IMG/VR virus record: IMGVR_UViG_2588253749_000006
Direction: 5' to 3' (one strand)
DNA length: 37,960 nucleotides
From: a virus
Taxonomy: Duplodnaviria; Heunggongvirae; Uroviricota; Caudoviricetes
Shown here: piece by piece, positions 1 through 33,325 of the stretch
How the letters are laid out: every line of letters begins with the position of its first letter
How positions within the stretch are numbered: position 1 is the first letter of the stretch
Made by a program: the position numbers and the translations under genes
The notes under the pieces: model-generated
Told to the model about the DNA's origin: nothing
The model's input: only the letters and a program-made list of their open reading frames with translations
Database searches by the model: none

Positions 1-390
1 TTACTCTTTTTTCTCCGTATCTGCATCGGGTTCATCAGCAAATAGCTTGCCCTGCATCCGATCCAGTTCTTCTTTTCTTACCCGCTTAACCACGCTGTAG
101 ACCCACTGAAGCGAAACACCAAATTTGCGGGCCAGTTCGTGGTGGTTGCGTCCGTTAAACTCCCTGAAGATTTCCCGGTCGCGCTGACTGACCTTCCATA
201 CCATGCCCATTGGGAAATAAACGTTTTGCCCGCCCCAGACCTGCATCATTCGGTTCGCGACAGCCTGACCAATCTGGTCGGCAATTGCGGGCTCAATATC
301 AATAATCTCGCGAACGGTCTCAGAGGTATGCTGTGCCAGTTCCACCAGGAGTTCCGGCCCTTTACTTCGAAACTGATTCAGGTCGCTCAT
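1..390 (-). CDS. mor: Mor/C-family transcription activator (middle/late gene activator)
   Basis: 129 aa; C-terminal HTH region FNGRNHHELARKFGVSLQWVYSVVKR and NVYFPMG motif match my recollection of Mu Mor/C; sits at the distal end of the early operon directly after the GemA-like gene, as in Mu. Confidence 0.65.
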   Translation of the reverse strand: MSDLNQFRSKGPELLVELAQHTSETVREIIDIEPAIADQIGQAVANRMMQVWGGQNVYFPMGMVWKVSQRDREIFREFNGRNHHELARKFGVSLQWVYSVVKRVRKEELDRMQGKLFADEPDADTEKKE

Positions 391-7491: not shown

Positions 7492-7800
7492 TTACAAACG
7501 ACTACCTGAAATAACACGTTGGTTGATTTCGTTAATGCGATCCTGTGCACGTGCCATCTCGTTACTGTGGGCCATGGCGATCTGCAGCAACTGGATGCCT
7601 GGTGCGAAACGCCCGTTTTCCAGTTTCAGGGCTAGTCCCTCTTCGATAAGGGTATTGAGTGCTCGATTGATGTTCGCCGGGGACTCATCTAGGGCTGATG
7701 CCAGTTCACCGTTAGAAACACCGTTCAGAGAGTGACCGCGTAGAGCTTTGAGTACACGTAGGATGCGGGTCCCGGAACTGGAGATATTTACTTTACTCAT
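7492..7800 (-). CDS. winged-HTH DNA-binding protein (IclR-like N-terminal HTH only)
   Basis: Internal Met MSKVNISS of track ORF 7492..7863; GTRILRVLKAL ... GELASALDESPANINRALNTLIEEGLA. Confidence 0.45.
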   Translation of the reverse strand: MSKVNISSSGTRILRVLKALRGHSLNGVSNGELASALDESPANINRALNTLIEEGLALKLENGRFAPGIQLLQIAMAHSNEMARAQDRINEINQRVISGSRL

Positions 7801-7852
7801 GTCACATTTCCATTTTTGCAATATGTGATAACCTGTTGCATATATGGAAAAT

Positions 7853-8041
7853 TTATGCCGCATTTGACGTGGGTTTTAATCCCAGCTTTACGGCAATTTC
7901 ATGGGCTTTGCCGTAACGAGCTTTGGTCTGTCCATTGAGAACACGATAGACCTCATTGCGGCTGTAGCCGTGTTCTTCGGCCCAGCGGGTAAACGTGATA
8001 CCACGCTGACGGAAGAGAGTTTTAACTTGTTCGGAAGTCAT
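7853..8041 (-). CDS. Ner-like small DNA-binding regulator
   Basis: 62 aa; GITFTRWAEEHGYSRNEVYRVL ... HEIAVKLGLKP resembles the Ner/Nlp fold; first gene of the leftward operon, divergent from the repressor. Confidence 0.5.
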   Translation of the reverse strand: MTSEQVKTLFRQRGITFTRWAEEHGYSRNEVYRVLNGQTKARYGKAHEIAVKLGLKPTSNAA

Positions 8042-8130
8042 TGTTGTCTCCTTTGTTGATGCAATGATGTTTGTTTTATATGTGATAGATTATGAGAACT
8101 ATTGTTCTCATTGTCAATGAGGTTTATGTG
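8040..8130. promoter_or_regulatory. divergent early/repressor control region with operator-like palindrome
   Basis: Short AT-rich gap between divergent ner-like and repressor genes; perfect inverted repeat TGAGAACTATTGTTCTCA at about 8093..8110. Confidence 0.4.
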
Positions 8131-8553
8131 AATTTTGATTCTCTTTGCGCGTCGCGGTTCAAAGCTGAGCGTTCGCGGTTATCACTCAAGCAGGCTGAAG
8201 TAGCAGCCCTTTGTGGCGTTTCAAGAGAAATGTGGGGGAAATATGAACGAGGGGTTGCAGTTCCCGGAGGTGAGTTACTTGCAGCCTTTGCAAGAATTGG
8301 GGCCAACGTACAGTTCATTCTTACTGGGGAATCATCAGGTATAACTTTATCACGTGATGAAATGGAGTTACTTCAGCACTACCGGCAAGCACCGTTACAA
8401 GTCAAAGGTTCAGTTTTGTCGGCATTGACGACTGGCTCCTCCAGAGAACGGGCGGAACAGGTTATTCATGGAGATGTTCTGGGGAATGTTATCAAAGGTA
8501 ACGTAACCATAGGAACAGGTGGAATAATGAACAAAAATACAAAGAGAAAATGA
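8092..8553 (+). CDS. XRE-family HTH repressor (immunity repressor candidate)
   Basis: HTH LSLKQAEVAALCGVSREMWGKYERG; divergent from the ner-like gene; true start may be the GTG near 8128 because the annotated ATG overlaps a palindrome. Confidence 0.65.
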   Translation: MRTIVLIVNEVYVNFDSLCASRFKAERSRLSLKQAEVAALCGVSREMWGKYERGVAVPGGELLAAFARIGANVQFILTGESSGITLSRDEMELLQHYRQAPLQVKGSVLSALTTGSSRERAEQVIHGDVLGNVIKGNVTIGTGGIMNKNTKRK

Positions 8554-10578: not shown

Positions 10579-11154
10579 ATGGGAACGTATTACACACTTG
10601 ATTCCGCTAGTCGTCTGCCTTCGCCTTGTCATGTAATTACCGGAAAATACGAGCCTGAAATGCCAGAACTGGCCGCTTTTCTTCATCAGATGTATCCCAA
10701 TGGCCTTTCGAGTCACGGGTATAACTATCTCTATAACCCCGGCCCTAAAATGGAAGATGACAGTGGAATCAGCAGAAGTCTGCTGGTCGGTCTGGTGTTT
10801 GAGTTAGTTCGCCGTAGCCATTTTCCTGATAAACCTTCCCGCTATCAGTCACTGTTTGCCTGTCAGCATCTGAGTGAAGTCAGGAAGTTCAGGGAATTAC
10901 TGGCTGATGAGAGAGGCGAAGACGAAATAAGAACGGCACCGATATATGAAGTCATCACAAATGAGCAGGTGCATCGCGGAGATATGAGGTTATTGAACAG
11001 TGATTGCCCGGTGCTGGAACTGTATCACCGTGCTTGGCTTTACTGGTCGGGTGAAGCAGCCCCAGTTAAGACTGGTGAGGACGAACCGTTCTGGGAACTG
11101 CTGATTCCGCTTCCAGTATTCGTTGGTCGAAGGATAACTGAATCGCAGGATTAG
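10579..11154 (+). CDS. unknown protein (accessory region)
   Basis: 191-aa ORF with an upstream AAGGA. Confidence 0.5.
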   Translation: MGTYYTLDSASRLPSPCHVITGKYEPEMPELAAFLHQMYPNGLSSHGYNYLYNPGPKMEDDSGISRSLLVGLVFELVRRSHFPDKPSRYQSLFACQHLSEVRKFRELLADERGEDEIRTAPIYEVITNEQVHRGDMRLLNSDCPVLELYHRAWLYWSGEAAPVKTGEDEPFWELLIPLPVFVGRRITESQD

Positions 11155-11389
11155 GTGCGGTTTTATATCGTGATGTCGCCGCCACATCGCCAATTAGCAT
11201 GACGTTGTTTTCTCCGCTGGCGAAATGACTTCTTCTCTCTTCAAGTGCAACCAGAACGTTTTTCAGCTCTATAATCGCTTCGGTTGGACAACATGCATCC
11301 AAGCTTAGCGTGTAAGTTTTATTCTGCTCTCCGATTCTGCTCCCAAAGAGGAACCCTTTTTTAATACCAGACTGTTTCGGTTCAGTCAT
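11066..11389 (-). CDS. unknown protein convergent with and overlapping the 10579..11154 gene
   Basis: Internal Met MTEPKQ with GGAGG RBS; 3' end overlaps the convergent gene by about 89 bp. Confidence 0.4.
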   Translation of the reverse strand: MTEPKQSGIKKGFLFGSRIGEQNKTYTLSLDACCPTEAIIELKNVLVALEERRSHFASGENNVMLIGDVAATSRYKTAPNPAIQLSFDQRILEAESAVPRTVRPHQS

Positions 11390-11454
11390 TGTGCTTGCCT
11401 CCCCTATGTTTTGTGTGCGACCATTCTGGTCGCTTCCCTCTGCGAACACTTATA

Positions 11455-11480
11455 ACGCGCTTTAAAATCCGTATCCCGCC
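11455..11480 (+). promoter_or_regulatory. candidate late-promoter activator site upstream of the lysis cassette
   Basis: GCTTTAAAATCCGT about 45-60 bp upstream of the first lysis gene; the same motif recurs near 24826 and 32932. Confidence 0.4.
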
Positions 11481-11519
11481 ACATTTGTGATGCTGTCTCC
11501 ACCAAACAAGGAGACACAC

Positions 11520-18303: not shown

Positions 18304-18762
18304 ATGGCTTCCGATAACCTGGTCAGTATCACCATTAACGATAAATCCCTGCGCCGGAGCCTCCGTGCGCTGGATCTTGCTGCCACAGACCTGGAGCCCG
18401 CGATGCGCAAAATCGCCGGAACCCTGCTGGCGGAAACACAGTTTAACTTTCTTGATGAGGGGCGTCCGGGGTGGATGCCCTCGCTGGCAGCGGAAGAACG
18501 TGACGGGCAGACACTGCAGGATACCGGGCGTCTGATGGGGTCAGTATCAACCGACCATGACGACCGGCAGGCTGTTGTGGGGACCAACGTTGTTTACGGT
18601 GCCATTCACCAGTTCGGGGGTAAAACGGGGCGTAATGAGTCTGTTGAACTTCCGGCCCGCCCGTTCCTGCCGGTGACGGGGGATGGAGAACTACAGCCTG
18701 AAGTGGTAATCCCCATCCTCGATACCATTGTCCGCCATCTTGAATCAGCGGCCCGTCGCTGA
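18304..18762 (+). CDS. virion morphogenesis protein (Mu G-like)
   Basis: 152 aa; GAIHQFGG motif typical of this family. Confidence 0.55.
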   Translation: MASDNLVSITINDKSLRRSLRALDLAATDLEPAMRKIAGTLLAETQFNFLDEGRPGWMPSLAAEERDGQTLQDTGRLMGSVSTDHDDRQAVVGTNVVYGAIHQFGGKTGRNESVELPARPFLPVTGDGELQPEVVIPILDTIVRHLESAARR

Positions 18763-18976
18763 GTTTTCTCTCTTCAGGCGGGTGATTTATCATTGCCAGC
18801 GAATGAGGGGCTGTATTACCTTTATAAAGGCTTTACAGCCTCTGTTTTATAACCGCTTCCGGTTCACCGCATTGCTTTCCCTGTCCTTCTCCCCTGATGT
18901 TTTCTAAAGCAGATTAAAATCGCCGGGCCTGCATTTCTCACAAACTGTCTCCGACAACATAACGCGGGACAGCAAA

Positions 18977-21856: not shown

Positions 21857-22320
21857 TGAATGTTCTGCCCGTCCTTGATGCGGTGCTGGCCCGGTTACGC
21901 GAGAAGCTGCCTCAGCTGCAGGTTGAGTACTTCCCGGAAAAGCCGTCCGAATACCGCCTCAATCATTCTGTCGGGGCGTTGCTGCTGAGCTATGCAGGAT
22001 CGCGTTTCGACAGGCCGGATGATACCGGTGCGGTGATCCAGCCTCAGACTATCCAGCTCTGCGTCACGGTGGTCTTCCGACAGCTCAACGGTAAAAAAGG
22101 GGCGATTAATGTCCTGGATGCTGTCCGCCGCATTCTTGGTGGCTACACCCCGCCCGGGTGCCGCCGCCGTATCTGGCTGACCCGCGAGGTGTTTATCGGT
22201 GAAGTCAGGGGGCTGTGGCAGTACGCCCTCGACTTCGCGACTGAAAGCGTCTTTATCGAAGACAGCGATTTACCGTCCGGCCCGCTGTTAACTGAAGTGA
22301 ACTATGAGGAAAGCGAGTGA
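21856..22320 (+). CDS. Mu gp37-like protein (DUF1834-like)
   Basis: 154 aa; coupled start; position between head and tail modules. Confidence 0.55.
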   Translation: MNVLPVLDAVLARLREKLPQLQVEYFPEKPSEYRLNHSVGALLLSYAGSRFDRPDDTGAVIQPQTIQLCVTVVFRQLNGKKGAINVLDAVRRILGGYTPPGCRRRIWLTREVFIGEVRGLWQYALDFATESVFIEDSDLPSGPLLTEVNYEESE

Positions 22321-22571
22321 TGAAAGAATACCGCTATTCCGGCCCGGCCAGCGGCGTCACGCTGTCGGACGGAACCGAAATCCTGCTCTGGCCGGGGAAG
22401 ACTGTTTCCCTGCCGGAGGAGCATGACTACGTGAAGGTACTGGTGGCGCTGAAGCATCTGACGCCGGTATCTGAAGAAATTAAACCCGCCGGCACACCGG
22501 CTGTGCAGTCACCAAAGCGCAGGAACGGCGGTGACAGCGAGGTGAAAACGGAGGACGCCCATGTCAGCTAA
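22317..22571 (+). CDS. hypothetical protein
   Basis: 84-aa coupled ORF before the sheath gene. Confidence 0.4.
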   Translation: MMKEYRYSGPASGVTLSDGTEILLWPGKTVSLPEEHDYVKVLVALKHLTPVSEEIKPAGTPAVQSPKRRNGGDSEVKTEDAHVS

Positions 22572-23988
22572 CTATCTGCATGGTCCGGAAACCATTGAAG
22601 TGGAAAACGGTGCCCGCCCGGTTAAAACGGTGAAATCTGCCGTTATTGGCCTGATTGGTACCGCACCAATGGGGGATGTCAATACGCTGGTACAGTGCCT
22701 GTCTGAGAAAGACGCTGCGGCATTTGGCAGCCAGTTCACCGGCTTTACCATTCCACAGGCGCTGGATGCGATTTATGACCATGGTGCAGGCACCGTTCTG
22801 GTCATTAACGTACTCGATCCGTCTGTGCATAAAACCGCTGTGGTCAGTGAGAATGTGTCGTTCGACAAGGCGACAGGCAGAGCCCGGCTGGCTAATCCGG
22901 TGGTCGCGCAGCTGGTACTGAAACCGGACAGCGACGGTCAGCCTTATGTTGAAGGTCAGGACTACTCGCTTGATGCACAGACCGGGGTGATTACTAACCT
23001 GGGTAAAAGCATTGCTGCAGATGCAACGGTGAAGGCCAGCTATAACTATGCTGATCCGACCAAAGTCACCCCGGCTGATATCATCGGTACCGTTAACGCT
23101 GCAGGCAACCGTACCGGCATGAAGCTGCTTAACGACAGTTTTAACCTGTTTGGCTACTTCGCCAAAATCCTGATTGCTCCGGTATTCTGCACCCAGAACA
23201 GCGTCTCGGTTGAGCTTATCGCCATGGCTGAGAAACTGGGAGCAGTAACCTATATTGATGCGCCGGTTGGTACCACTTTTGCGCAGGCTCTGGTGGGACG
23301 AGGCCCGGAAGGCACCATTAACTTTAATACCAGCTCTGACCGTGTCCGCCTGTGCTACCCGCATGTGAAGGTATATGACCCGGTGACGAACACGGAACGT
23401 CTGGAGCCACTGAGCCAGCGTGCGGCGGGCCTGCGTGCCAAAGTCGACCTGGACAAAGGGTACTGGTGGTCATCCTCAAATCAGGAAATTCTGGGGATCA
23501 CCGGCGTGGAGCGCCAGCTGTCGGCAATGATTGACGATCCGCAGAGCGAGGTGAACCTGCTTAACGAACAGGGAATCACCACGGTATTCAGCAGTTACGG
23601 CAGCGGCCTTCGTCTGTGGGGTAACCGGACGGCAGCATGGCCAACGGTCACCCATATGCGTAACTTTGAGAACGTTCGCCGCACCGGTGATGTGATCAAT
23701 GAGTCCATTCGTTACTTCAGCCAGCAGTACATCGACATGCCGATTACTCAGGCGCTGATTGATGCACTGACGGAGTCGGTCAACGCCTACGGTCGCAAAA
23801 TGACTGGTGATGGCGCGGTACTGGGCTTCCGTTGCTGGTTTGATCCGGCCCGCAATCCGGAAACGGAGCTGGCCGCCGGGCACCTGTTGCTGAGCTACAA
23901 ATATACGCCACCACCGCCGCTGGAGCGACTGACGTTTGAGACTGAGATCACCTCGGAATACCTGTTAACCCTGAAAGGGGGCAACTGA
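22561..23988 (+). CDS. contractile tail sheath protein
   Basis: 475 aa, followed by the tube gene. Confidence 0.75.
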   Translation: MSANYLHGPETIEVENGARPVKTVKSAVIGLIGTAPMGDVNTLVQCLSEKDAAAFGSQFTGFTIPQALDAIYDHGAGTVLVINVLDPSVHKTAVVSENVSFDKATGRARLANPVVAQLVLKPDSDGQPYVEGQDYSLDAQTGVITNLGKSIAADATVKASYNYADPTKVTPADIIGTVNAAGNRTGMKLLNDSFNLFGYFAKILIAPVFCTQNSVSVELIAMAEKLGAVTYIDAPVGTTFAQALVGRGPEGTINFNTSSDRVRLCYPHVKVYDPVTNTERLEPLSQRAAGLRAKVDLDKGYWWSSSNQEILGITGVERQLSAMIDDPQSEVNLLNEQGITTVFSSYGSGLRLWGNRTAAWPTVTHMRNFENVRRTGDVINESIRYFSQQYIDMPITQALIDALTESVNAYGRKMTGDGAVLGFRCWFDPARNPETELAAGHLLLSYKYTPPPPLERLTFETEITSEYLLTLKGGN

Positions 23989-24509
23989 TGTCAAAGATTG
24001 AGATAAACCGAATCACGAATGCCAACATCTATCTGGATGGTACTAACCTGCTGGGACGGGCTGAGGAGGTTAAACTCCCCGATGTCTCCATGATTATGCA
24101 GGAACACAAGGCACTGGGGATGGTGGGTAAGGTGGAACTCCCGGCTGGTTTTGACAAACTGGAAGGCGAAATCAAATGGAACAGCTTTTACCGCGATGCG
24201 ATGCTGTCTGCCGCGAACCCGTACAAGTCGCTGGCGCTGCAGTGTCGCTCCAGCGTCCAGCGCTACAGCTCGCAGGGGCTGATCGACGAAATCCCGCTGG
24301 TCACCTTCCTGACAATTATGTTCAAGAAGAACCCGCTGGGGACGTTTAAACAGCACGAGAACGCCGAGTTCTCCAGTAGCTTCACCTGCACGTATATCAG
24401 ACAGGTACTGGATGGTGAAGAGTTGCTGCAACTGGACTATCTGGCCAACATCTTCCGCGTCGGTGGCGTTGATCAACTGACTGACTATCGGATCAATATC
24501 GGGGGCTGA
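23988..24509 (+). CDS. tail tube protein
   Basis: 173 aa directly after the sheath gene. Confidence 0.65.
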   Translation: MSKIEINRITNANIYLDGTNLLGRAEEVKLPDVSMIMQEHKALGMVGKVELPAGFDKLEGEIKWNSFYRDAMLSAANPYKSLALQCRSSVQRYSSQGLIDEIPLVTFLTIMFKKNPLGTFKQHENAEFSSSFTCTYIRQVLDGEELLQLDYLANIFRVGGVDQLTDYRINIGG

Positions 24510-24511
24510 CG

Positions 24512-24793
24512 GTGAGTGTTGAACTGACTGACAAAGGAGGGCGATGTGCGTCACTGGGCATGTCAAATGGTACGTGGTTTACCCTCCTTGATATTCCGGG
24601 GGTGGAAACCCTTTTTAATACCCGTAAAACCAATGACCCGATTGACTGCACACGTTCAAAGGCCCGCAAACTGGCCGATTTGATTGAAGCATGGGAGCCG
24701 CCCGACCACTGGTTCTCCGGCATCGGCAAATCTGAGGGAAAGGCGCTTCTCATCGCTTTCCTGCGTAACTGCAAGGGTTTTCGCACTTGCTGA
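24512..24793 (+). CDS. small hypothetical protein inside the tail operon
   Basis: 93-aa ORF with GTG start, followed by a hairpin terminator. Confidence 0.35.
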   Translation: MSVELTDKGGRCASLGMSNGTWFTLLDIPGVETLFNTRKTNDPIDCTRSKARKLADLIEAWEPPDHWFSGIGKSEGKALLIAFLRNCKGFRTC

Positions 24794-24800
24794 CATCACA

Positions 24801-24822
24801 GGGGCTCCGGCCCCTTCTTCTT
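24801..24822 (+). terminator. Rho-independent terminator candidate
   Basis: GGGGC-TCCG-GCCCC hairpin followed by TTCTTCTT. Confidence 0.45.
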
Positions 24823-24823
24823 A

Positions 24824-24846
24824 ATCTCCTTTAATATCCGTCACGT
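24824..24846 (+). promoter_or_regulatory. candidate late-promoter activator site upstream of the tail chaperone/tape-measure operon
   Basis: CCTTTAATATCCGT about 45-60 bp upstream of the chaperone start; the same motif recurs near 11457 and 32932. Confidence 0.4.
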
Positions 24847-24890
24847 CCACCGCCAGACATACTGCTCTGAATTTACAAAGGAGTATGATC

Positions 24891-25226
24891 ATGTCACAGA
24901 CCCAGTCCGATACTTTTACGCTGTCTTATCCTTTCACCACTGCTGCAGGTACCAGAATTGAACAGATTGAACTGAAACGCCTGACAGTAAAAGACCTGAA
25001 GCAGGTGCGCAAAATCAACAAAGACCCGGCAGACTGGGACGAACCACTGATTGCCCGTAGCACCGGTATCCTCCCGGAAGACCTCGATAACATGGATCTT
25101 GCCGACTATATGGAGCTGCAGAAACGATTTCAGAAAATCACTGGGCTGGGCAAGAGCGACAAAAACACTGATGCAGGCGCAGGGCCTGCTGGCGAGATGG
25201 TTCAGGTTTCAGCCGGGGGAGATTGA
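24891..25226 (+). CDS. tail assembly chaperone candidate
   Basis: Second ATG of track ORF 24885..25226 (better spacing from AAAGGAG); lies just before the tape-measure gene; overlapping +1-frame ORF 25051..25308. Confidence 0.45.
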   Translation: MSQTQSDTFTLSYPFTTAAGTRIEQIELKRLTVKDLKQVRKINKDPADWDEPLIARSTGILPEDLDNMDLADYMELQKRFQKITGLGKSDKNTDAGAGPAGEMVQVSAGGD

Positions 25227-25400
25227 TGCCCTCGATACTGACGATCTGGAGATGTGGCTGGAGCAGGCTGAAGAGCAAATCAAAAGCGAGTTCGGCGACA
25301 ATCAGTAACAACGTATCACTTAACAGCCGCCAGTCGCGGCTGTTCTGCATGGGGTTCAGACACTTCCCTTCCGTTTTTTTGCTTTCAGAGGATAGCCACC

Positions 25401-27866
25401 GTGGCCAGTGAATTTTCAGTCGGCGTCATTATTGGCGGCATTGTCGGGAGCAGCTTCCGCTCAGCCGTCAGTGGCACCCGACGCGCCCTTGATTCCCTTG
25501 GTGATACCTCCCGCCGTCTGCAGGAACGCCAGAATGCCTTAACCCGGGCAACAGAACGTTATGGTCAACTGGGTTCTTCCCGGATGCAGCATCTCAACAG
25601 CGAGTTGCTGCGGGTAAGCCGCACCATGGAGCAAATTGAACGTCAGCAGCGCCGTCTGTCAGCAGTATCAGCCACCGGTGATGCGTTGAAGGCTAACCGC
25701 CTGGCGCTCTATGGTCAGGGTGCAGAAACCTATGCTATTGGCAGAACGCTGGGCGCACCGGTCATGGCCTCGGTTAAACAATATGCCTCGTTTGAATCAC
25801 AGTTGCGGGATATCAGTGTCACAGGAGACCTGGATGCAAAACAGGAACGTGCAATTGGCCTGGCTATCAGACAGGCCTCGCTGAAGGTTAACCAACTGCA
25901 GGAGTCTCTGTTAGGGGGAGTCGGACAATTAGTTGCTGATGGTATGGCCCCCGAACGGGCAGCAACGTTTGCAGAGATGCTTGGAAAGACCGCTACAGCA
26001 ACCAAAGCCGATATGACCGACCTTGCCAAAATGACTTATGCCTTCAGCGATGCACTCAGAATCACTGATGCGAAAGAACTTGAACAGGCGTTTGGCATTG
26101 CGGCAACAGGAGCCAAACTTGGGTCATTTGAGCTGAAGGATATGGCAAAAGCATTACCCGGTATGGCGAAAGCCTTCGCTGCTCGTGGTATTTATGGAAA
26201 AGATGCGATTACCCAGATTGTTGCCAGTCTGGAGGTCGGTAAAGGTAGTGGCTCTGCAGAGGAAGCGGTCACCAATATGTCCAACTGGCTGGCAGCAATG
26301 GGCCGCGGAGATACCATCCAGAAATATGCTAAAGCCGGGGTGGATTACCAGGGGTCAATGCAGAATTACGTCGCTCAGGGTTTTTCGCAGTACGAAGCTT
26401 CACTGATGATTGCCAACCGTTTTATCGACAGTAAAGGCAAAGCGTTTTTGCAGCAATGGAAAGCTGCAGGAGCAAGAGGCGATCAGGAAGGTCAGCAGAA
26501 ACTCATGGAGTCATTTGGTCTGGCTGAGGTCTTTACCGATATTCAGACTGTCAACCATTTACTGTCAATGCGACAGGGCTGGGATAAATACCTTTCCAGT
26601 AAGCAGGAAATGAATGCTCCGGCTGCAATGTCTACCCTGGATAAGGATGCTGCAAAGCAGAATGATACGCTTGAAGGTCGCTGGCGCAGAATGCAGATCG
26701 GCTTTAATGATTCTGCTATCAGCATCGGGCAATCCTTGCGTCCGGCTTTGCTCCAGTTGGGTGAAACATTTATTCCTTTAATGGACAGCGTCGGCAAATG
26801 GATAGCGGCAAATCCGCAGCTCGTCAGCAGCACCATAAAGGTTGTGGGCGCATTACTCGCTTTCAGGATGGCCACTATCGGTCTCAAGTTTGGGCTGAAT
26901 CTCCTTATTTCCCCCTTTGTAAGCGTCTGGAAAAATGCTGTTTTACTTCGGGCCAACTGGCTTCGTCTGATGCTCGCACTGGGGGAAGGCGGTAAACTCC
27001 GCTGGCTGGTGACAGGCTTTGGTGCCGTCGCCAGAGGAACCAGAACACTGGGGGGGGTGCTCTCAGGGGGGCTGGTTCGCGGAATTATGAGCGCCGGGCG
27101 TGCCGTTCTCTGGATTGGCCGGGCGCTGCTGATGAATCCCATCGGTCTCGTTATCACCGCCGTCGCGGCAGCAGCTTACCTTATCTACCGCAACTGGGGC
27201 GCTGTCAGTAGCTGGTTTAAACAGCGCTGGGCTGACATTCAGGAAGCCTTTAACGGCGGCATCGCGGGAATTGGTAAACTGCTGGTTAACTGGTCTCCGG
27301 CAGGTCTGCTTTATAAAGCCTTTGCGGCTGCGCTGAAATATCTCGGCGTTGATTTGCCGGCGAAATTCACCGACTTCGGTGGTCATCTTATTGACGGGCT
27401 GATAAATGGCATCAGAAACAAATGGGCGTCACTGAAAACCAGCATAACCGGAATGGGTGACAGCATCAGTGACTGGTTCAGCGAAAAGCTGGGCATCCAT
27501 TCACCGAGTCGCGTGTTTATAGGCTTTGGTGACAATATCGCGCAGGGTGCCGCCATTGGCCTGCAACGGACCACTCCGCTTGCTGCACTGGCCGGGCAGC
27601 GCCTGGCCGCTGAAATGACACCGGATGTTCCCCGTATCCCGTCGCCGGAAATCATGGCTGCCGGATATTCAGGCCGTGGCGCAACTGCAACCGGCGGTGG
27701 AGCGTCTGGCGGTATCCAGGTCAGCTTTAATCCTCATTTTTTCCTCAATGGTAAGGAAACCGCAGCGCCTGCCGGGCTGGCTGGTGCCCTGAATATGAGC
27801 CTGCATGAGCTGGAAAAAATGCTGGAGCGTCTGCTGGCTCAGAAACAACGTAAGGAGTACAGCTGA
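25401..27866 (+). CDS. tail tape-measure protein
   Basis: 821 aa, GTG start with AGAGGA RBS, helical/Gly-rich, between the chaperone and N-like genes. Confidence 0.8.
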   Translation: MASEFSVGVIIGGIVGSSFRSAVSGTRRALDSLGDTSRRLQERQNALTRATERYGQLGSSRMQHLNSELLRVSRTMEQIERQQRRLSAVSATGDALKANRLALYGQGAETYAIGRTLGAPVMASVKQYASFESQLRDISVTGDLDAKQERAIGLAIRQASLKVNQLQESLLGGVGQLVADGMAPERAATFAEMLGKTATATKADMTDLAKMTYAFSDALRITDAKELEQAFGIAATGAKLGSFELKDMAKALPGMAKAFAARGIYGKDAITQIVASLEVGKGSGSAEEAVTNMSNWLAAMGRGDTIQKYAKAGVDYQGSMQNYVAQGFSQYEASLMIANRFIDSKGKAFLQQWKAAGARGDQEGQQKLMESFGLAEVFTDIQTVNHLLSMRQGWDKYLSSKQEMNAPAAMSTLDKDAAKQNDTLEGRWRRMQIGFNDSAISIGQSLRPALLQLGETFIPLMDSVGKWIAANPQLVSSTIKVVGALLAFRMATIGLKFGLNLLISPFVSVWKNAVLLRANWLRLMLALGEGGKLRWLVTGFGAVARGTRTLGGVLSGGLVRGIMSAGRAVLWIGRALLMNPIGLVITAVAAAAYLIYRNWGAVSSWFKQRWADIQEAFNGGIAGIGKLLVNWSPAGLLYKAFAAALKYLGVDLPAKFTDFGGHLIDGLINGIRNKWASLKTSITGMGDSISDWFSEKLGIHSPSRVFIGFGDNIAQGAAIGLQRTTPLAALAGQRLAAEMTPDVPRIPSPEIMAAGYSGRGATATGGGASGGIQVSFNPHFFLNGKETAAPAGLAGALNMSLHELEKMLERLLAQKQRKEYS

Positions 27867-28750
27867 TGTTTGCCGTACTGGGTGATATTGAGTTTGAACT
27901 GATTACCTACTGGGACGGCTTCGAGGCCACGTTTGGCGTCGATTATGCGGAGCATGCCCGCATCGAGGGTAAACCCGGCCTGCAGTTCGTCGGCGACAGG
28001 CTGGACGAAATCCAGATAAGCCTGGTCTTCCATCAGCATTATTGTGTGCCCGACGTGGAGCTGGCGAGAGTGCGAACAGCCATGAAGGCCCATCAGGCAC
28101 TGGCGCTGGTCTTCGGCAACGGTGACTATCGCGGCTGGTTCGTGATTACCGATGTGACCGCAACCAGCGAGCAGACAGACAGCACCGGTAACGTGCTGGC
28201 TGTCAGTGCCACCGTGTCTCTCCGGGAATACACCGGTGACCCGAAAAATCCTCTGCAACCGCCGGCAATACGCAGGCAGGTTCCCGGTGCCGGGGCCATA
28301 TCTGGTGCTGTTCCATCGCCTTCCGGGGTGGCGCAGTTCGTCCGTAACGGCGTCAACTATGCGAAACAGGCGCAGTCTGTACTCCAGACCACCATCAGTG
28401 CCGTTCGGGTGGCGCAGAAAATGAAGGGTAACCCCGTTGTCGCGCTGACCCGTGTGCCGGGACTGATGAGCGGACTGGGTAATATATCCGGCGCTCTGGG
28501 GAAAAGTATTCCGGCGTTTAATGTACTCTCTGAATCCATGCCCGATGCCATCAGTCTGGCCAGAACAGCCAGTGAGGCAGCCACGTATGTACAGCAGGCG
28601 CAGTCGGCGCTGAGTGGTGTGGACAAAAGAAATATTGCAGGTGCTCTGGATACCGTTTCCGGGCAGCTTAACGCCGCCGGCACAGCATTCAACCGCATGT
28701 CTCCGGGATTAAGTGCAATGGCCGCCAGAATACTGACGAGGAGTGTGTGA
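27866..28750 (+). CDS. DNA circularisation protein (Mu N-like)
   Basis: 294 aa after the tape measure; N-terminal MFAVLGDIEFELI ... resembles the Mu N family. Confidence 0.65.
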   Translation: MFAVLGDIEFELITYWDGFEATFGVDYAEHARIEGKPGLQFVGDRLDEIQISLVFHQHYCVPDVELARVRTAMKAHQALALVFGNGDYRGWFVITDVTATSEQTDSTGNVLAVSATVSLREYTGDPKNPLQPPAIRRQVPGAGAISGAVPSPSGVAQFVRNGVNYAKQAQSVLQTTISAVRVAQKMKGNPVVALTRVPGLMSGLGNISGALGKSIPAFNVLSESMPDAISLARTASEAATYVQQAQSALSGVDKRNIAGALDTVSGQLNAAGTAFNRMSPGLSAMAARILTRSV

Positions 28751-30613: not shown

Positions 30614-30694
30614 TTTTTCAAGTATGTGACTCCATTTCCTCTCCCGCGGATATGATAGAATTTTTTAATTAACACTAATTTGGCGGGGACTTAA

Positions 30695-31411
30695 ATGCGG
30701 TTATCAAGATCCTTATGTAAAGTAGTTGGCGATGTCATTGCTAACTCAGGCTCTCATGCAGCTTTAGATACGTTATTTCTTACTTCGGGAGCACCAGGAA
30801 ACCCTCCGGCAGGATCTCATAGTACAAAATGGAAAGACTGGTTATTTCTTGCAGGGCAAGATCCAGATACAGATAGTCTGGCAGTTCTGGGCGGAGTAAT
30901 TGAGGAGTTTATGGATTTACCTCCAAAAGAAGGTACTCCCGAATATGCAGAATGGAAGGAAAAACGAGACAGAATTGAAGCTGTGTTACAAGAGAATGGA
31001 CTTAGATATTATCGTTTTGGTCGAGTGTTGCCTGAAGGCCACATCCCGTCACACAATATGGATTACCCAGAGACCATAATTACTTATCAACAGCCAGTAA
31101 TGCCAGAAAAAGTTGAGAACTTACTGGAAAGGCTGGTCAAAGGCTTACAGCGAGCAATGCATCCACTTACTCATAGGCGAAAAGGAAGCCAGTCATTATC
31201 TTTTAGCAATGAATATGACGTGCAAGACCTTCTCCATGCATTGCTCAGACCATGGGTTCAGGACATCCGCCCAGAAGAGTTTACTCCAAGTTACGCTGGT
31301 TCAAGTACTCGAATGGATTTTTTGTTACCTGCGCATAAATTAGTACTGGAAACCAAAATTGTTCGTGATCGTTCTCATGCAAAGAAAATCGGCGATGAAC
31401 TTATTATCGAT
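30695..31411 (+). pseudogene. 5' part of an AT-rich cargo gene interrupted by IS2; C-terminal region resembles a PD-(D/E)xK nuclease core
   Basis: The track ORF's stop is the first three bases (TAG) of the IS2 left end; reading frame resumes at 32748; candidate catalytic D in RMDFLL and ExK in LVLETK. Confidence 0.6.
31407..31411. repeat. IS2 target-site duplication, left copy (TCGAT)
   Basis: Identical 5-mer abuts both IS2 ends. Confidence 0.85.
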
Positions 31412-31502
31412 TAGACTGGCCCCCTGAATCTCCAGACAACCAGTATCACTTAAATAAGTGATAGTCTTAATACTAGTTTTTAGACTAGTCATTGGAGAAC
31501 AG

Positions 31503-31868
31503 ATGATTGATGTCTTAGGGCCGGAGAAACGCAGACGGCGTACCACACAGGAAAAGATCGCAATTGTTCAGCAGAGCTTTGAACCGGGGATGACGGTCTC
31601 CCTCGTTGCCCGGCAACATGGTGTAGCAGCCAGCCAGTTATTTCTCTGGCGTAAGCAATACCAGGAAGGAAGTCTTACTGCTGTCGCCGCCGGAGAACAG
31701 GTTGTTCCTGCCTCTGAACTTGCTGCCGCCATGAAGCAGATTAAAGAACTCCAGCGCCTGCTCGGCAAGAAAACGATGGAAAATGAACTCCTCAAAGAAG
31801 CCGTTGAATATGGACGGGCAAAAAAGTGGATAGCGCACGCGCCCTTATTGCCCGGGGATGGGGAGTAA
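31503..31868 (+). CDS. insC: IS2 OrfA (InsC)
   Basis: 121 aa starting [24 protein letters not shown], recognised as IS2 InsC. Confidence 0.9.
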
Positions 31869-32731
31869 GCTTAGTCAGCCGTTGTCTCCGGGTGTCGCGT
31901 GCGCAGTTGCACGTCATTCTCAGACGAACCGATGACTGGATGGATGGCCGCCGCAGTCGTCACACTGATGATACGGATGTGCTTCTCCGTATACACCATG
32001 TTATCGGAGAGCTGCCCACGTATGGTTATCGTCGGGTATGGGCGCTGCTTCGCAGACAGGCAGAACTTGATGGTATGCCTGCGATCAATGCCAAACGTGT
32101 TTACCGGATCATGCGCCAGAATGCGCTGTTGCTTGAGCGAAAACCTGCTGTACCGCCATCGAAACGGGCACATACAGGCAGAGTGGCCGTGAAAGAAAGC
32201 AATCAGCGATGGTGCTCTGACGGGTTCGAGTTCTGCTGTGATAACGGAGAGAGACTGCGTGTCACGTTCGCGCTGGACTGCTGTGATCGTGAGGCACTGC
32301 ACTGGGCGGTGACTACCGGCGGCTTCAACAGTGAAACAGTACAGGACGTCATGCTGGGAGCGGTGGAACGCCGCTTCGGCAACGATCTTCCGTCGTCTCC
32401 AGTGGAGTGGCTGACGGATAATGGTTCATGCTACCGGGCTAATGAAACACGCCAGTTCGCCCGGATGTTGGGACTTGAACCGAAGAACACGGCGGTGCGG
32501 AGTCCGGAGAGTAACGGAATAGCAGAGAGCTTCGTGAAAACGATAAAGCGTGACTACATCAGTATCATGCCCAAACCAGACGGGTTAACGGCAGCAAAGA
32601 ACCTTGCAGAGGCGTTCGAGCATTATAACGAATGGCATCCGCATAGTGCGCTGGGTTATCGCTCGCCACGGGAATATCTGCGGCAGCGGGCTTGTAATGG
32701 GTTAAGTGATAACAGATGTCTGGAAATATAG
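31826..32731 (+). CDS. insD: IS2 OrfB (InsD) transposase catalytic part
   Basis: 301 aa recognised as IS2 InsD; overlaps InsC in the -1 frame at the A6G site. Confidence 0.9.
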
Positions 32732-32742
32732 GGGCAAATCCA

Positions 32743-32747
32743 TCGAT
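32743..32747. repeat. IS2 target-site duplication, right copy (TCGAT)
   Basis: Identical to 31407..31411. Confidence 0.85.
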
Positions 32748-32906
32748 ATAGAGCATTATCGTCGGCACTCTGATTGCAAAAATCTCTGGTGTGTCATCTA
32801 CGATCCGAACCAGCTTATTACTAATTCTGAGGGGCTGAAATCTGATCTTGAGGGGAAGAGAGTTTCTAAAGACGGAGAACTTATCGTCAAGGTTTTCGTA
32901 ATTTAA
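32748..32906 (+). pseudogene. 3' part of the IS2-interrupted cargo gene
   Basis: In frame with 30695..31411 once IS2 and one TCGAT copy are removed (about 291 aa reconstructed). Confidence 0.55.
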
Positions 32907-32929
32907 CAAACGTATCAATAACTCCTTTT

Positions 32930-32952
32930 TAAATCCCTTTAATATCGTTCTT
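32930..32952 (+). promoter_or_regulatory. candidate late-promoter activator site upstream of the baseplate operon
   Basis: CCTTTAATATCGT about 30-45 bp upstream of the gpW-like start; the same motif recurs near 11457 and 24826. Confidence 0.35.
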
Positions 32953-32977
32953 TTCTTACTGGGGCAATACTGCCCCC

Positions 32978-33325
32978 ATGAAAACGACCTCAGTATTCTG
33001 GCAACCGGCTCTGCAGGCTCCCGGCGAAATCGTCCGGGGGCTGGATGATATCCAGCAGTCCATCCAGATCATCCTGCGGACTCCCCGCGGCAGCGACCCG
33101 CATCGCCCAGAGTTCGGCAGCAATCTGCACCTTTATATCGACTGGCCTGTCGACCGGGCCATTCCGCATGTGGTTCGCGAATCCGTCGATGCCATCAGGC
33201 GCTGGGAACCCCGCTGCCAGCTTATGTCGGTTAAACCCGCCGTCGACGGCGAACATCTTACGCTCCGGGTGAGCTGGAAAGGCTCAGACGGACAACCCCG
33301 TACTCAGGAACTGCTATGGCGCTGA
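32978..33325 (+). CDS. baseplate wedge protein (GPW/gp25-like)
   Basis: 115 aa; GLDDIQQSIQIILRTPRGSDPHRPEFGSNLHLYID resembles the GPW/gp25 family. Confidence 0.7.
   Translation: MKTTSVFWQPALQAPGEIVRGLDDIQQSIQIILRTPRGSDPHRPEFGSNLHLYIDWPVDRAIPHVVRESVDAIRRWEPRCQLMSVKPAVDGEHLTLRVSWKGSDGQPRTQELLWR

Follow-up and report, generated by a model that had tools for sequence, protein, structure and literature searches.

The window analyzed here, the whole 37,960-base stretch of IMG/VR record IMGVR_UViG_2588253749_000006, corresponds to a BcepMu-type (genus Bcepmuvirus) transposable myophage or prophage of E. coli, and this account concerns the interval 24800-24893, which separates the tail sheath and tail tube genes from the genes for the tail assembly chaperone and the tape measure. 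The interval comprises (i) a GC-rich stem-loop with a T-rich tail, (ii) a dyad box followed by a -10 hexamer, and (iii) a predicted transcription start, a ribosome-binding site and the chaperone start codon (Table 1). The original prediction had described this place as the second copy of a late-operon motif, directly after a terminator hairpin and upstream of the chaperone and tape-measure genes, and had taken the tail genes for a late unit separate from sheath and tube. The setting agrees with that description, the Phage_TAC_7 and PhageMin_Tail matches lying 3' of the motif and the sheath and tube genes 5', and the separate unit finds support in the comparative evidence. Our reading is that 24800-24893 probably combines an intrinsic terminator or attenuator with a Mor-dependent late promoter directly 3' of it, placed at the junction between two late units.

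The motif, the 14-mer CCTTTAATATCCGT, occurs exactly where it had been reported, on the plus strand, and stands as half of a longer element rather than as the whole: it covers the promoter-proximal half-site of a dyad together with the -35 region, the distal half-site being located in the T-rich tail of the hairpin. The complete activator box reads T-N2-TTAA-N6-TTAA-tATC, with its two TTAA half-sites at 24821-24824 and 24831-24834 centered on 24827.5, equivalent to -42.5 from the predicted start A24870, or -43.5 if transcription begins at 24871. Comparison of 45 distinct chaperone-gene sites discloses a nearly invariant box and -10 separated by a 16-nt spacer that varies freely: 39-45 of the 45 retain T24818, both cores (TAA and TTAA), C24829 and A24836; within the -10, A24859, A24861 and T24863 are invariant, and C24862 and the following G24864 recur in 39-40. 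A conserved box and -10 with a free spacer is the pattern of a footprint, as far as conservation can tell. The -35 position, TATCCG, matches TTGACA at two of six positions, and a consensus scan found no plus-strand sigma-70 -35/-10 pair in the hairpin-to-promoter interval. An IHF site was considered as well and rejected, inspection of the interval by eye revealing no WATCAR-N4-TTR match.

The same composite element occurs four times in the window. The pattern TAA-N6-TTAA-N24-A-NN-CTG yields four matches, all intergenic and on the plus strand, and no other on either strand, with 0.01 expected, and the 14-mer with two mismatches or fewer yields three sites (11459, 24828 and 32936) with 0.07 expected; the motif is thus repeated, as had been noticed, with four copies instead of two, the 24828 site being third in genome order. 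The sister sites precede the holin gene, the head protease/scaffold gene and baseplate gene W (gpW), with the layout recurring at 11452, 18904 and 32929, respectively; the box-to-(-10) spacing is 23 nt at all four sites, and the -10 with its G reads GATGCTG (holin), CAAACTG (head), CATACTG (chaperone) and AATACTG (gpW). A 49-nt weight matrix, trained on the gpW, head and holin sites of other genomes, excluding chaperone sites and the window, places the four sites at 36-48 bits, the chaperone site at 24818 reaching 37.2; the runner-up in the window, the palindromic holin box read in reverse, reaches 13.8 bits, and over 200 shuffles the best score averaged 3.5 bits and never went above 18. A chance resemblance in AT-rich sequence beside an incidental hairpin could appeal to nothing beyond the short length of the elements, and it is already refuted by the composite count (4 versus 0.01), by a matrix score of 37 bits against the shuffle maximum and by conservation across dozens of genera, which leaves it a negligible probability. 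As a side observation (11389-11470, minus strand), the palindromic holin box might also serve a divergent 107-aa open reading frame (ORF) at 11069-11389 (minus strand, no Pfam match): its minus-strand reading places CAGAAT 23 nt past a TTAT half-site, at just the 13.8 bits mentioned above.

The relatives considered comprise 75 loci retrieved via the tube protein, plus BcepMu. Over 1.54 Mb of related loci the matrix gives 188 matches in the sense of the genes and two on the opposite strand, and the matches precede the same four gene classes, bar one recurrent match near locus position 7800, found in about 20 loci with a non-homologous head module, where it constitutes a predicted site without an assigned downstream gene. 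In about 57 of the 75 loci the site lies directly 5' of the chaperone gene, usually with a hairpin 5' of it. The late-promoter interpretation of the motif is therefore upheld, in predictive terms, by a shared box, 23-nt spacing and nAnACTG, by recognition through an independent matrix and by conservation in these relatives.

The hairpin with its T-rich tail occupies 24800-24826, directly 5' of the motif as had been stated, and starts 6 nt past the TGA of a 93-aa ORF. Its stem of 6 bp (five G-C) closes a 4-nt loop and folds at -12.8 kcal/mol (z = -2.7 versus shuffles), and its tail overlaps the distal half-site of the activator box; release of the transcript is expected within this tail. Hairpin conservation was judged from per-sequence folds. 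A hairpin of -10 kcal/mol or stronger lies within 60 nt 5' of the box in 39 of 44 distinct upstream segments (median -12.2 kcal/mol), and under a stricter criterion, which demands a T-rich tail and a folding energy of -8 kcal/mol or stronger, hairpins are near-absent from the other promoter classes (2/55 gpW, 0/36 head and 0/18 holin sites). At least eight unrelated stems occupy the same position across lineages, each with a T-rich run 3' of it: GGGGC/GCCCC, GAGGGGCC/GGCCCCTT, AAGGAGGGA/CCCTCCTT, GGGAGAGA/TCTCTCCC, GGCCCAC/GTGGGCC, GGGGGCG/CGTCCCT, CGGCCCGC/GCGGGCCG and GGCCCGC/GCGGGCC. Among them, the BcepMu hairpin GGCCCGC-ttcg-GCGGGCC, followed by tttttt, is a textbook terminator, and the Pectobacterium stem (AAGGAGGGA...CCCTCCTT, then ttttt) a canonical one. 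Differing stems with a constant T-run are the signature of a selected intrinsic terminator, and comparison supports the terminator reading of the hairpin. RNAalifold on a MAFFT alignment of 14 hairpin-plus-box segments returned merely a weak 5-bp consensus (-2.2 kcal/mol), because the stems vary in length and offset and so misalign. The possibility that the hairpin terminates the DUF7739 cargo gene (the 93-aa ORF) was rejected, since the hairpin persists in cargo-free relatives: where the tube-to-chaperone gap measures 105-146 nt and holds no cargo ORF, hairpin and promoter are still there.

A candidate activator is encoded at the very start of the window, where the Mor-family gene specifies a 129-aa protein with matches to Mu Mor (1RR7; 1e-9) and Mu C (9L0X; 4e-9). 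When all six frames of the window were searched with Mu Mor and Mu C, no second homologue emerged, and each complete relative checked, namely PhiKM, KP12 and BcepMu, has a Mor-family gene. The late promoters of Mu possess a -10 but lack a -35, and C binds a 16-bp imperfect dyad centered at -43.5 (PMC2582627); cryo-EM places Mor and C on two adjacent major grooves just 5' of the -35 region, touching RNA polymerase (bioRxiv 10.1101/2025.05.02.651988). Because this layout is shared and the window holds exactly one Mor/C gene, the window Mor protein is presumed, by analogy, to activate all four late promoters. The protein ends in QGKLF (residues 113-117; window 40-54, minus strand) and an acidic tail, and QGKLF resembles a clamp-binding motif: the aligned C-terminal QPDLF of Mu C is a reported beta-clamp-binding motif needed for late transcription (PMC12867686).

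Several observations weigh against the combined reading of terminator, promoter and Mor. With regard to the promoter, CATACT agrees with TATAAT at four of six positions, and the BcepMu site, which keeps the layout (TTAA-tctgcg-CTGA ... GACAAT), has a degenerate proximal half-site (CTGA) and scores under the threshold. The two elements are also separable, loci L069, L051 and L058 having the promoter without the hairpin and L055-L057 the hairpin without the promoter. With regard to termination, the U-tract, UCUUCUUAAU or, with the A-U closing pair open, UUCUUCUU, contains 6-7 U broken by C, and termination may therefore be weak and is probably partial. With regard to the activator, the assignment of Mor as the binder rests on geometry and co-occurrence; the family matrix finds no match on Mu and P2 (maximum 5.5 bits); and the few loci that include Mor (36-100% identity) are all of the TTAA type and provide no informative Mor/box co-variation, Mor being over 10 kb away from the tube gene in most retrieved loci. 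Lineages with variant half-sites are represented by Lysobacter (CTAA/TTAG) and Lonsdalea (TTAA/TTAC).

The interrupted U-tract lends itself to a different account, in which the promoter is real and the hairpin, instead of being a working terminator, acts mainly as a 3'-end or processing barrier that stabilizes the mRNA of sheath and tube, or else as a pause site; read-through would then be the fate of most polymerases, and both transcripts would serve the chaperone and tape-measure genes. Loci L055-L057 fit this account, their GC hairpin lying 29-33 nt before the chaperone gene with neither T-run nor promoter, so that read-through is necessary there, as does P2, whose hairpin after tube gene FII has a poor T-tail and no promoter behind it. 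The T-run that follows the stem in most lineages and the several canonical terminators (BcepMu, Pectobacterium) speak for termination instead, and the tail of the window, which scores -3.5 to -4.0 by a TransTermHP-type formula, falls near the 1st percentile of random 15-mers (-3.7; mean -2.0). We regard the barrier or pause site, with service by both transcripts, as unlikely, and keep to a terminator that is probably partial.

The difference between this box and those of Mu C and Mor raises a further question, namely whether it is a protein-binding site that is no promoter, or a promoter driven by another factor, either a phage helix-turn-helix protein or a host protein. Small helix-turn-helix proteins are indeed encoded at 8092-8553, 7495-7863 (minus) and 7856-8041 (minus), besides unassigned ORFs. 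The fixed 23 nt to a conserved -10, the orientation in the sense of the genes and the placement before the first gene of an operon are properties of promoters, and a 4-N6-4 dyad near -43 without a -35 is the defining layout of Mor/C promoters, in a family that carries Mor in every complete member checked; both variants are thus highly improbable beside a Mor-dependent promoter.

The sequence of events that we propose would begin with RNA from the head promoter (near 18953), which would pass the head, sheath, tube and cargo genes and reach the terminator at 24800-24826, where the head-sheath-tube transcript would be ended or thinned. Mor, whose gene closes the leftward early operon, would bind the TTAA-N6-TTAA dyad and recruit host sigma-70 RNA polymerase, in the manner of Mu C at P_lys, P_I, P_P and P_mom, and would act directly in this way at all four late promoters; a new transcript would start near A24870, with a short leader in which AAGGAG is free, to serve the chaperone gene, the tape-measure gene and the following tail genes. 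In this way the low-copy tail proteins would be uncoupled from sheath and tube, which are very abundant. The identity of the binding protein, the start site, the late timing and the termination efficiency are all inferred, the timing by analogy with Mu and from the kind of genes served. An element of this kind is expected for a Mu-like phage and is solid rather than surprising.

Table 1. Coordinates of the junction elements, the sister promoters and the genes discussed (window positions unless another locus is named).
Feature	Position	Strand	Basis or remark
Stem-loop AGGGGC-TCCG-GCCCCT	24800-24815	+	A24800-C24805 / loop TCCG 24806-24809 / G24810-T24815
T-rich tail TCTTCTTAATC	24816-24826	+	read from sequence; TCTTCTTAAT = 24816-24825
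Activator box T-N2-TTAA-N6-TTAA-tATC	24818-24838	+	sequence and conservation
14-mer CCTTTAATATCCGT	24828-24841	+	exact match
-10 CATACT and conserved G	24858-24864 (hexamer 24858-24863)	+	23 nt past proximal TTAA
Predicted transcription start A24870	24869-24871	+	usual 7 nt from last -10 base
Ribosome-binding site AAGGAG	24878-24883	+	GGAG at 24880-24883
Tail sheath gene	22561-23988	+	Pfam Phage_sheath_1 7e-29
Tail tube gene	23988-24509	+	Pfam Phage_tube 2e-53
93-aa ORF, weak DUF7739	24512-24793 (TGA 24791-24793)	+	Pfam 1.7e-5, below curated cut-off
Tail assembly chaperone gene	24891-25226, frameshift extension ORF to 25411	+	Pfam Phage_TAC_7 1.5e-22
Tape-measure gene, 821 aa	25401-27866	+	Pfam PhageMin_Tail 2e-15
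Predicted sister promoter, holin gene (ATG 11520)	11449-11497	+	matrix 36.8 bits; composite match; Pfam Holin_2-3 1e-40
Predicted sister promoter, head protease/scaffold gene (ATG 18977)	18901-18949	+	matrix 36.4 bits; composite match
Predicted sister promoter, baseplate gene W (ATG 32978)	32926-32974	+	matrix 48.5 bits; composite match; Pfam GPW_gp25 4e-12
Mor/C-family activator gene, 129 aa	1-390	minus	Pfam Mor PF08765 1.3e-43
Cargo slot	window 24510-24799; L004 10519-10815; L011 11135-12091; L058 776-2904; L060 10596-11840		

Over 22000-28000 the window is about 90% identical to three known phages, Phi06_2974 B and PhiKM of Escherichia and KP12 of Klebsiella, and 640 of 5426 complete E. coli genomes carry the stretch 24400-25300, among them E. 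coli 503025 (NZ_CP025892.1) with 100% identity; the prophage family ranges from Enterobacterales into some Betaproteobacteria. From about 8 kb the early genes, the transposase gene among them, point leftward and end with the Mor-family gene, and from about 11.5 kb the genes for lysis, head and tail point rightward. Sheath and tube are probably the final core genes of an upstream unit starting at the head promoter, and the chaperone and tape-measure genes, whose identities agree with the annotations of PhiKM and KP12, probably open the proposed unit, which would run on to gpV (end 30613). ATG 24891, rather than ATG 24885, is likely the true start codon of the chaperone gene, because relatives lack ATG 24885 and read ACGATCATGTCA or ACAATCATGTCA there. 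Rfam gave zero matches, both over the whole window and over 24600-25000.

The deposited records of BcepMu, PhiKM and KP12 carry no annotation of the regulatory signals of this family, the BcepMu GenBank record being free of any regulatory feature, and the searchable literature, not covering the 2004 BcepMu genome paper (Summer et al., J Mol Biol), yielded no description of late promoters of the BcepMu group. In the passages covered from the published differential RNA-seq study of B. cenocepacia J2315, a BcepMu carrier, no start is listed near ~585375; these are uninduced lysogens, in which late promoters are expected to be silent.

The gap between the tube stop codon and the chaperone gene ranges from 29 to 2189 nt across relatives, and the 93-aa ORF is missing from many of them, which marks this ORF, on comparative grounds, as apparent cargo in a variable slot between the tube gene and the hairpin. 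Depending on the prophage, the slot is filled by DUF7739 or Phage_gp49_66, by an IS element, by a PAAR-motif protein accompanied by three unknown ORFs, or by a CdiA-CT RNase A toxin paired with its immunity protein CdiI. Insertions are also seen elsewhere in the tail module: the interval from the gpV stop codon to the gpW promoter (30614-32925), just ~55 nt long in close relatives, here accommodates an ORF (30695-31414) whose product has a DpnII/MboI restriction-endonuclease domain, as well as an IS3-family element (31458-32731; HTH_Tnp_1 and rve), and the gpW late promoter is kept directly 3' of both.

A second possible layer of insulation concerns translation. The -10 and the bases preceding the predicted start can pair with the ribosome-binding site through the inverted repeat CATACT-GC-TCT (24858-24868) / AAA-GG-AGTATG (24877-24887), the minimum free energy being -11.1 kcal/mol for read-through RNA versus -3.6 for RNA from the predicted start; by these folds the 24858-24887 pairing would be possible only in RNA that reads through from upstream. 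At all four promoters the pairing involves the -10 and the 6 nt that follow, gpW showing a variant in which a stem surrounds the -10. The corresponding arms are TGTCTCC/GGAGACA at the holin gene (11494-11516) and CTGTCTCCG/CGCGGGACAG at the head gene (18945-18972). The pairing is kept with other arms in Dickeya (CTGCTCCTGAA/TTCAGGAGCAG), Lelliottia (CTGTCCTCATC/GATGAGGACAG) and Photorhabdus (GATACT/AGTATC). The 12 pre-start bases add a median stability of 6.4 (chaperone), 8.5 (holin) and 8.65 (head) kcal/mol, compared with 2.7-3.5 in composition-matched shuffles, and duplexes of pre-start bases with the ribosome-binding site average -8.7 kcal/mol within their own lineage versus -6.8 across lineages (permutation p = 0.0002); the signal is partly generic CUCC:GGAG complementarity, and all of it depends on predicted start sites.

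At the gpW promoter (32958-32980), the -10 AATACT (32966-32971) is located in the loop of a perfect GGGGC/GCCCC repeat that abuts ATG 32978; there is no ribosome-binding site, and the predicted start is the A of the ATG, so that RNA from this promoter would be a leaderless message. Among the sites of about 40 related loci, other lineages build this stem from GCGGC/GCCGC, GAGGGC/GCCCTC or GGCGAC/GTCGCC, and betaproteobacterial relatives show the same stem-around-(-10) design at the head promoter. Single-register covariation of the gpW stem is modest (66% of cells paired versus 59% in shuffles), because two registers coexist.

From these features we venture, with doubts that outweigh our confidence, that the late units may be doubly insulated: RNA leaking in from upstream could not be translated into the product of the first gene, RNA started by Mor could, and the junctions, given the terminator as well, would offer safe docking sites for cargo. 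If so, the first gene of each unit, including the holin gene, would be expressed solely when Mor fires, and the gathering of toxins, immunity genes, a restriction-enzyme-like gene and IS elements at the junctions would be explained. It is this fold-back and leaderless design that may make experiments worthwhile.

Independently of that proposal, the analysis provides a usable late-promoter model (box, spacing and -10) and a map of four predicted late units for a common E. coli prophage family, with better operon annotation, a defined target set for a Mor-family activator and a rationale for cargo insertion sites. The target set comes at a time when structures and a sliding-clamp link have recently been reported for Mor-family activators in Mu (bioRxiv 10.1101/2025.05.02.651988; PMC12867686).

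Comparison with phage Mu highlights a common design with distinct specificity. Both systems have four late promoters with a -10 and no -35, those of Mu being the C-activated P_lys, P_I, P_P and P_mom (P_m is activated by Mor), and in both the dyad consists of two 4-bp half-sites 6 bp apart, centered near -43. The Mu boxes, TTAT-N6-ATAA, lie 24 nt from TAGACTG or CAAACTG, compared with 23 nt in the window, and the two share the nAnACTG form of the -10. In each, one promoter precedes the lysis genes and another the head protease gene, the head site of the window corresponding in position to Mu P_I, and in the annotated Mu record predicted terminators abut P_m, P_lys and P_I, the same terminator-then-promoter arrangement as in the window. 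With respect to the head promoter, the 215-nt gap before it contains two terminator-like hairpins, one at 18745-18762, where it overlaps the stop codon of the G-like gene, and one at 18828-18841, and the Mu gap that matches 18745-18900 holds a strong gyrase site, a predicted terminator and P_I.

On the other hand, the half-sites are TTAT/ATAA(CC) in Mu and TTAA/TTAA in the window, and the 24828 site is best described, from its sequence, as working like a Mu late promoter outside the Mu C regulon, with a specificity of its own. Mu has two Mor/C genes, Mor and then C, whereas the window has one, which suggests a two-step early-to-late cascade with no separate middle operon. In addition, only 9 nt separate the tube and chaperone genes of Mu, whose tail promoter P_P is internal to gene N and precedes the hub gene P; the BcepMu-type family, unlike Mu, splits the tail module before the chaperone gene and before gpW.

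Besides Mu, the tube-chaperone interval resembles the morons, promoter-gene-terminator cassettes among phage late genes, in being a variable cargo slot, and differs from them in that the hairpin and promoter are not cargo, the cargo entering between the tube stop codon and the hairpin. A moron-cassette terminator was accordingly rejected as an identity for the hairpin, given that hairpin and promoter are present where the inserted gene is absent. The P2 tail operon FI-FII-E-E'-T-U-D contains homologous sheath, tube, frameshift chaperone and tape-measure genes in the same order, and it has a GC-rich hairpin after tube gene FII, CCGGTCAGC-ctg-GCTGACCGG, which, unlike that of the window, is followed by no T-run. 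P2 is not known to have a promoter between FII and E, and its late promoters, including P_F, use the zinc-finger activator Ogr and a different box.

The closest counterpart of the fold-back pairing is found in IS10/Tn10, for which Davis, Simons and Kleckner reportedly described in 1985 a fold-back inhibition of transposase translation in transcripts entering from outside. In both cases the sequence 5' of the element's own start (here a predicted one) is complementary to the ribosome-binding site, and only read-through RNA could hide that site; the design in the window would insulate successive phage late operons, rather than a transposase gene.

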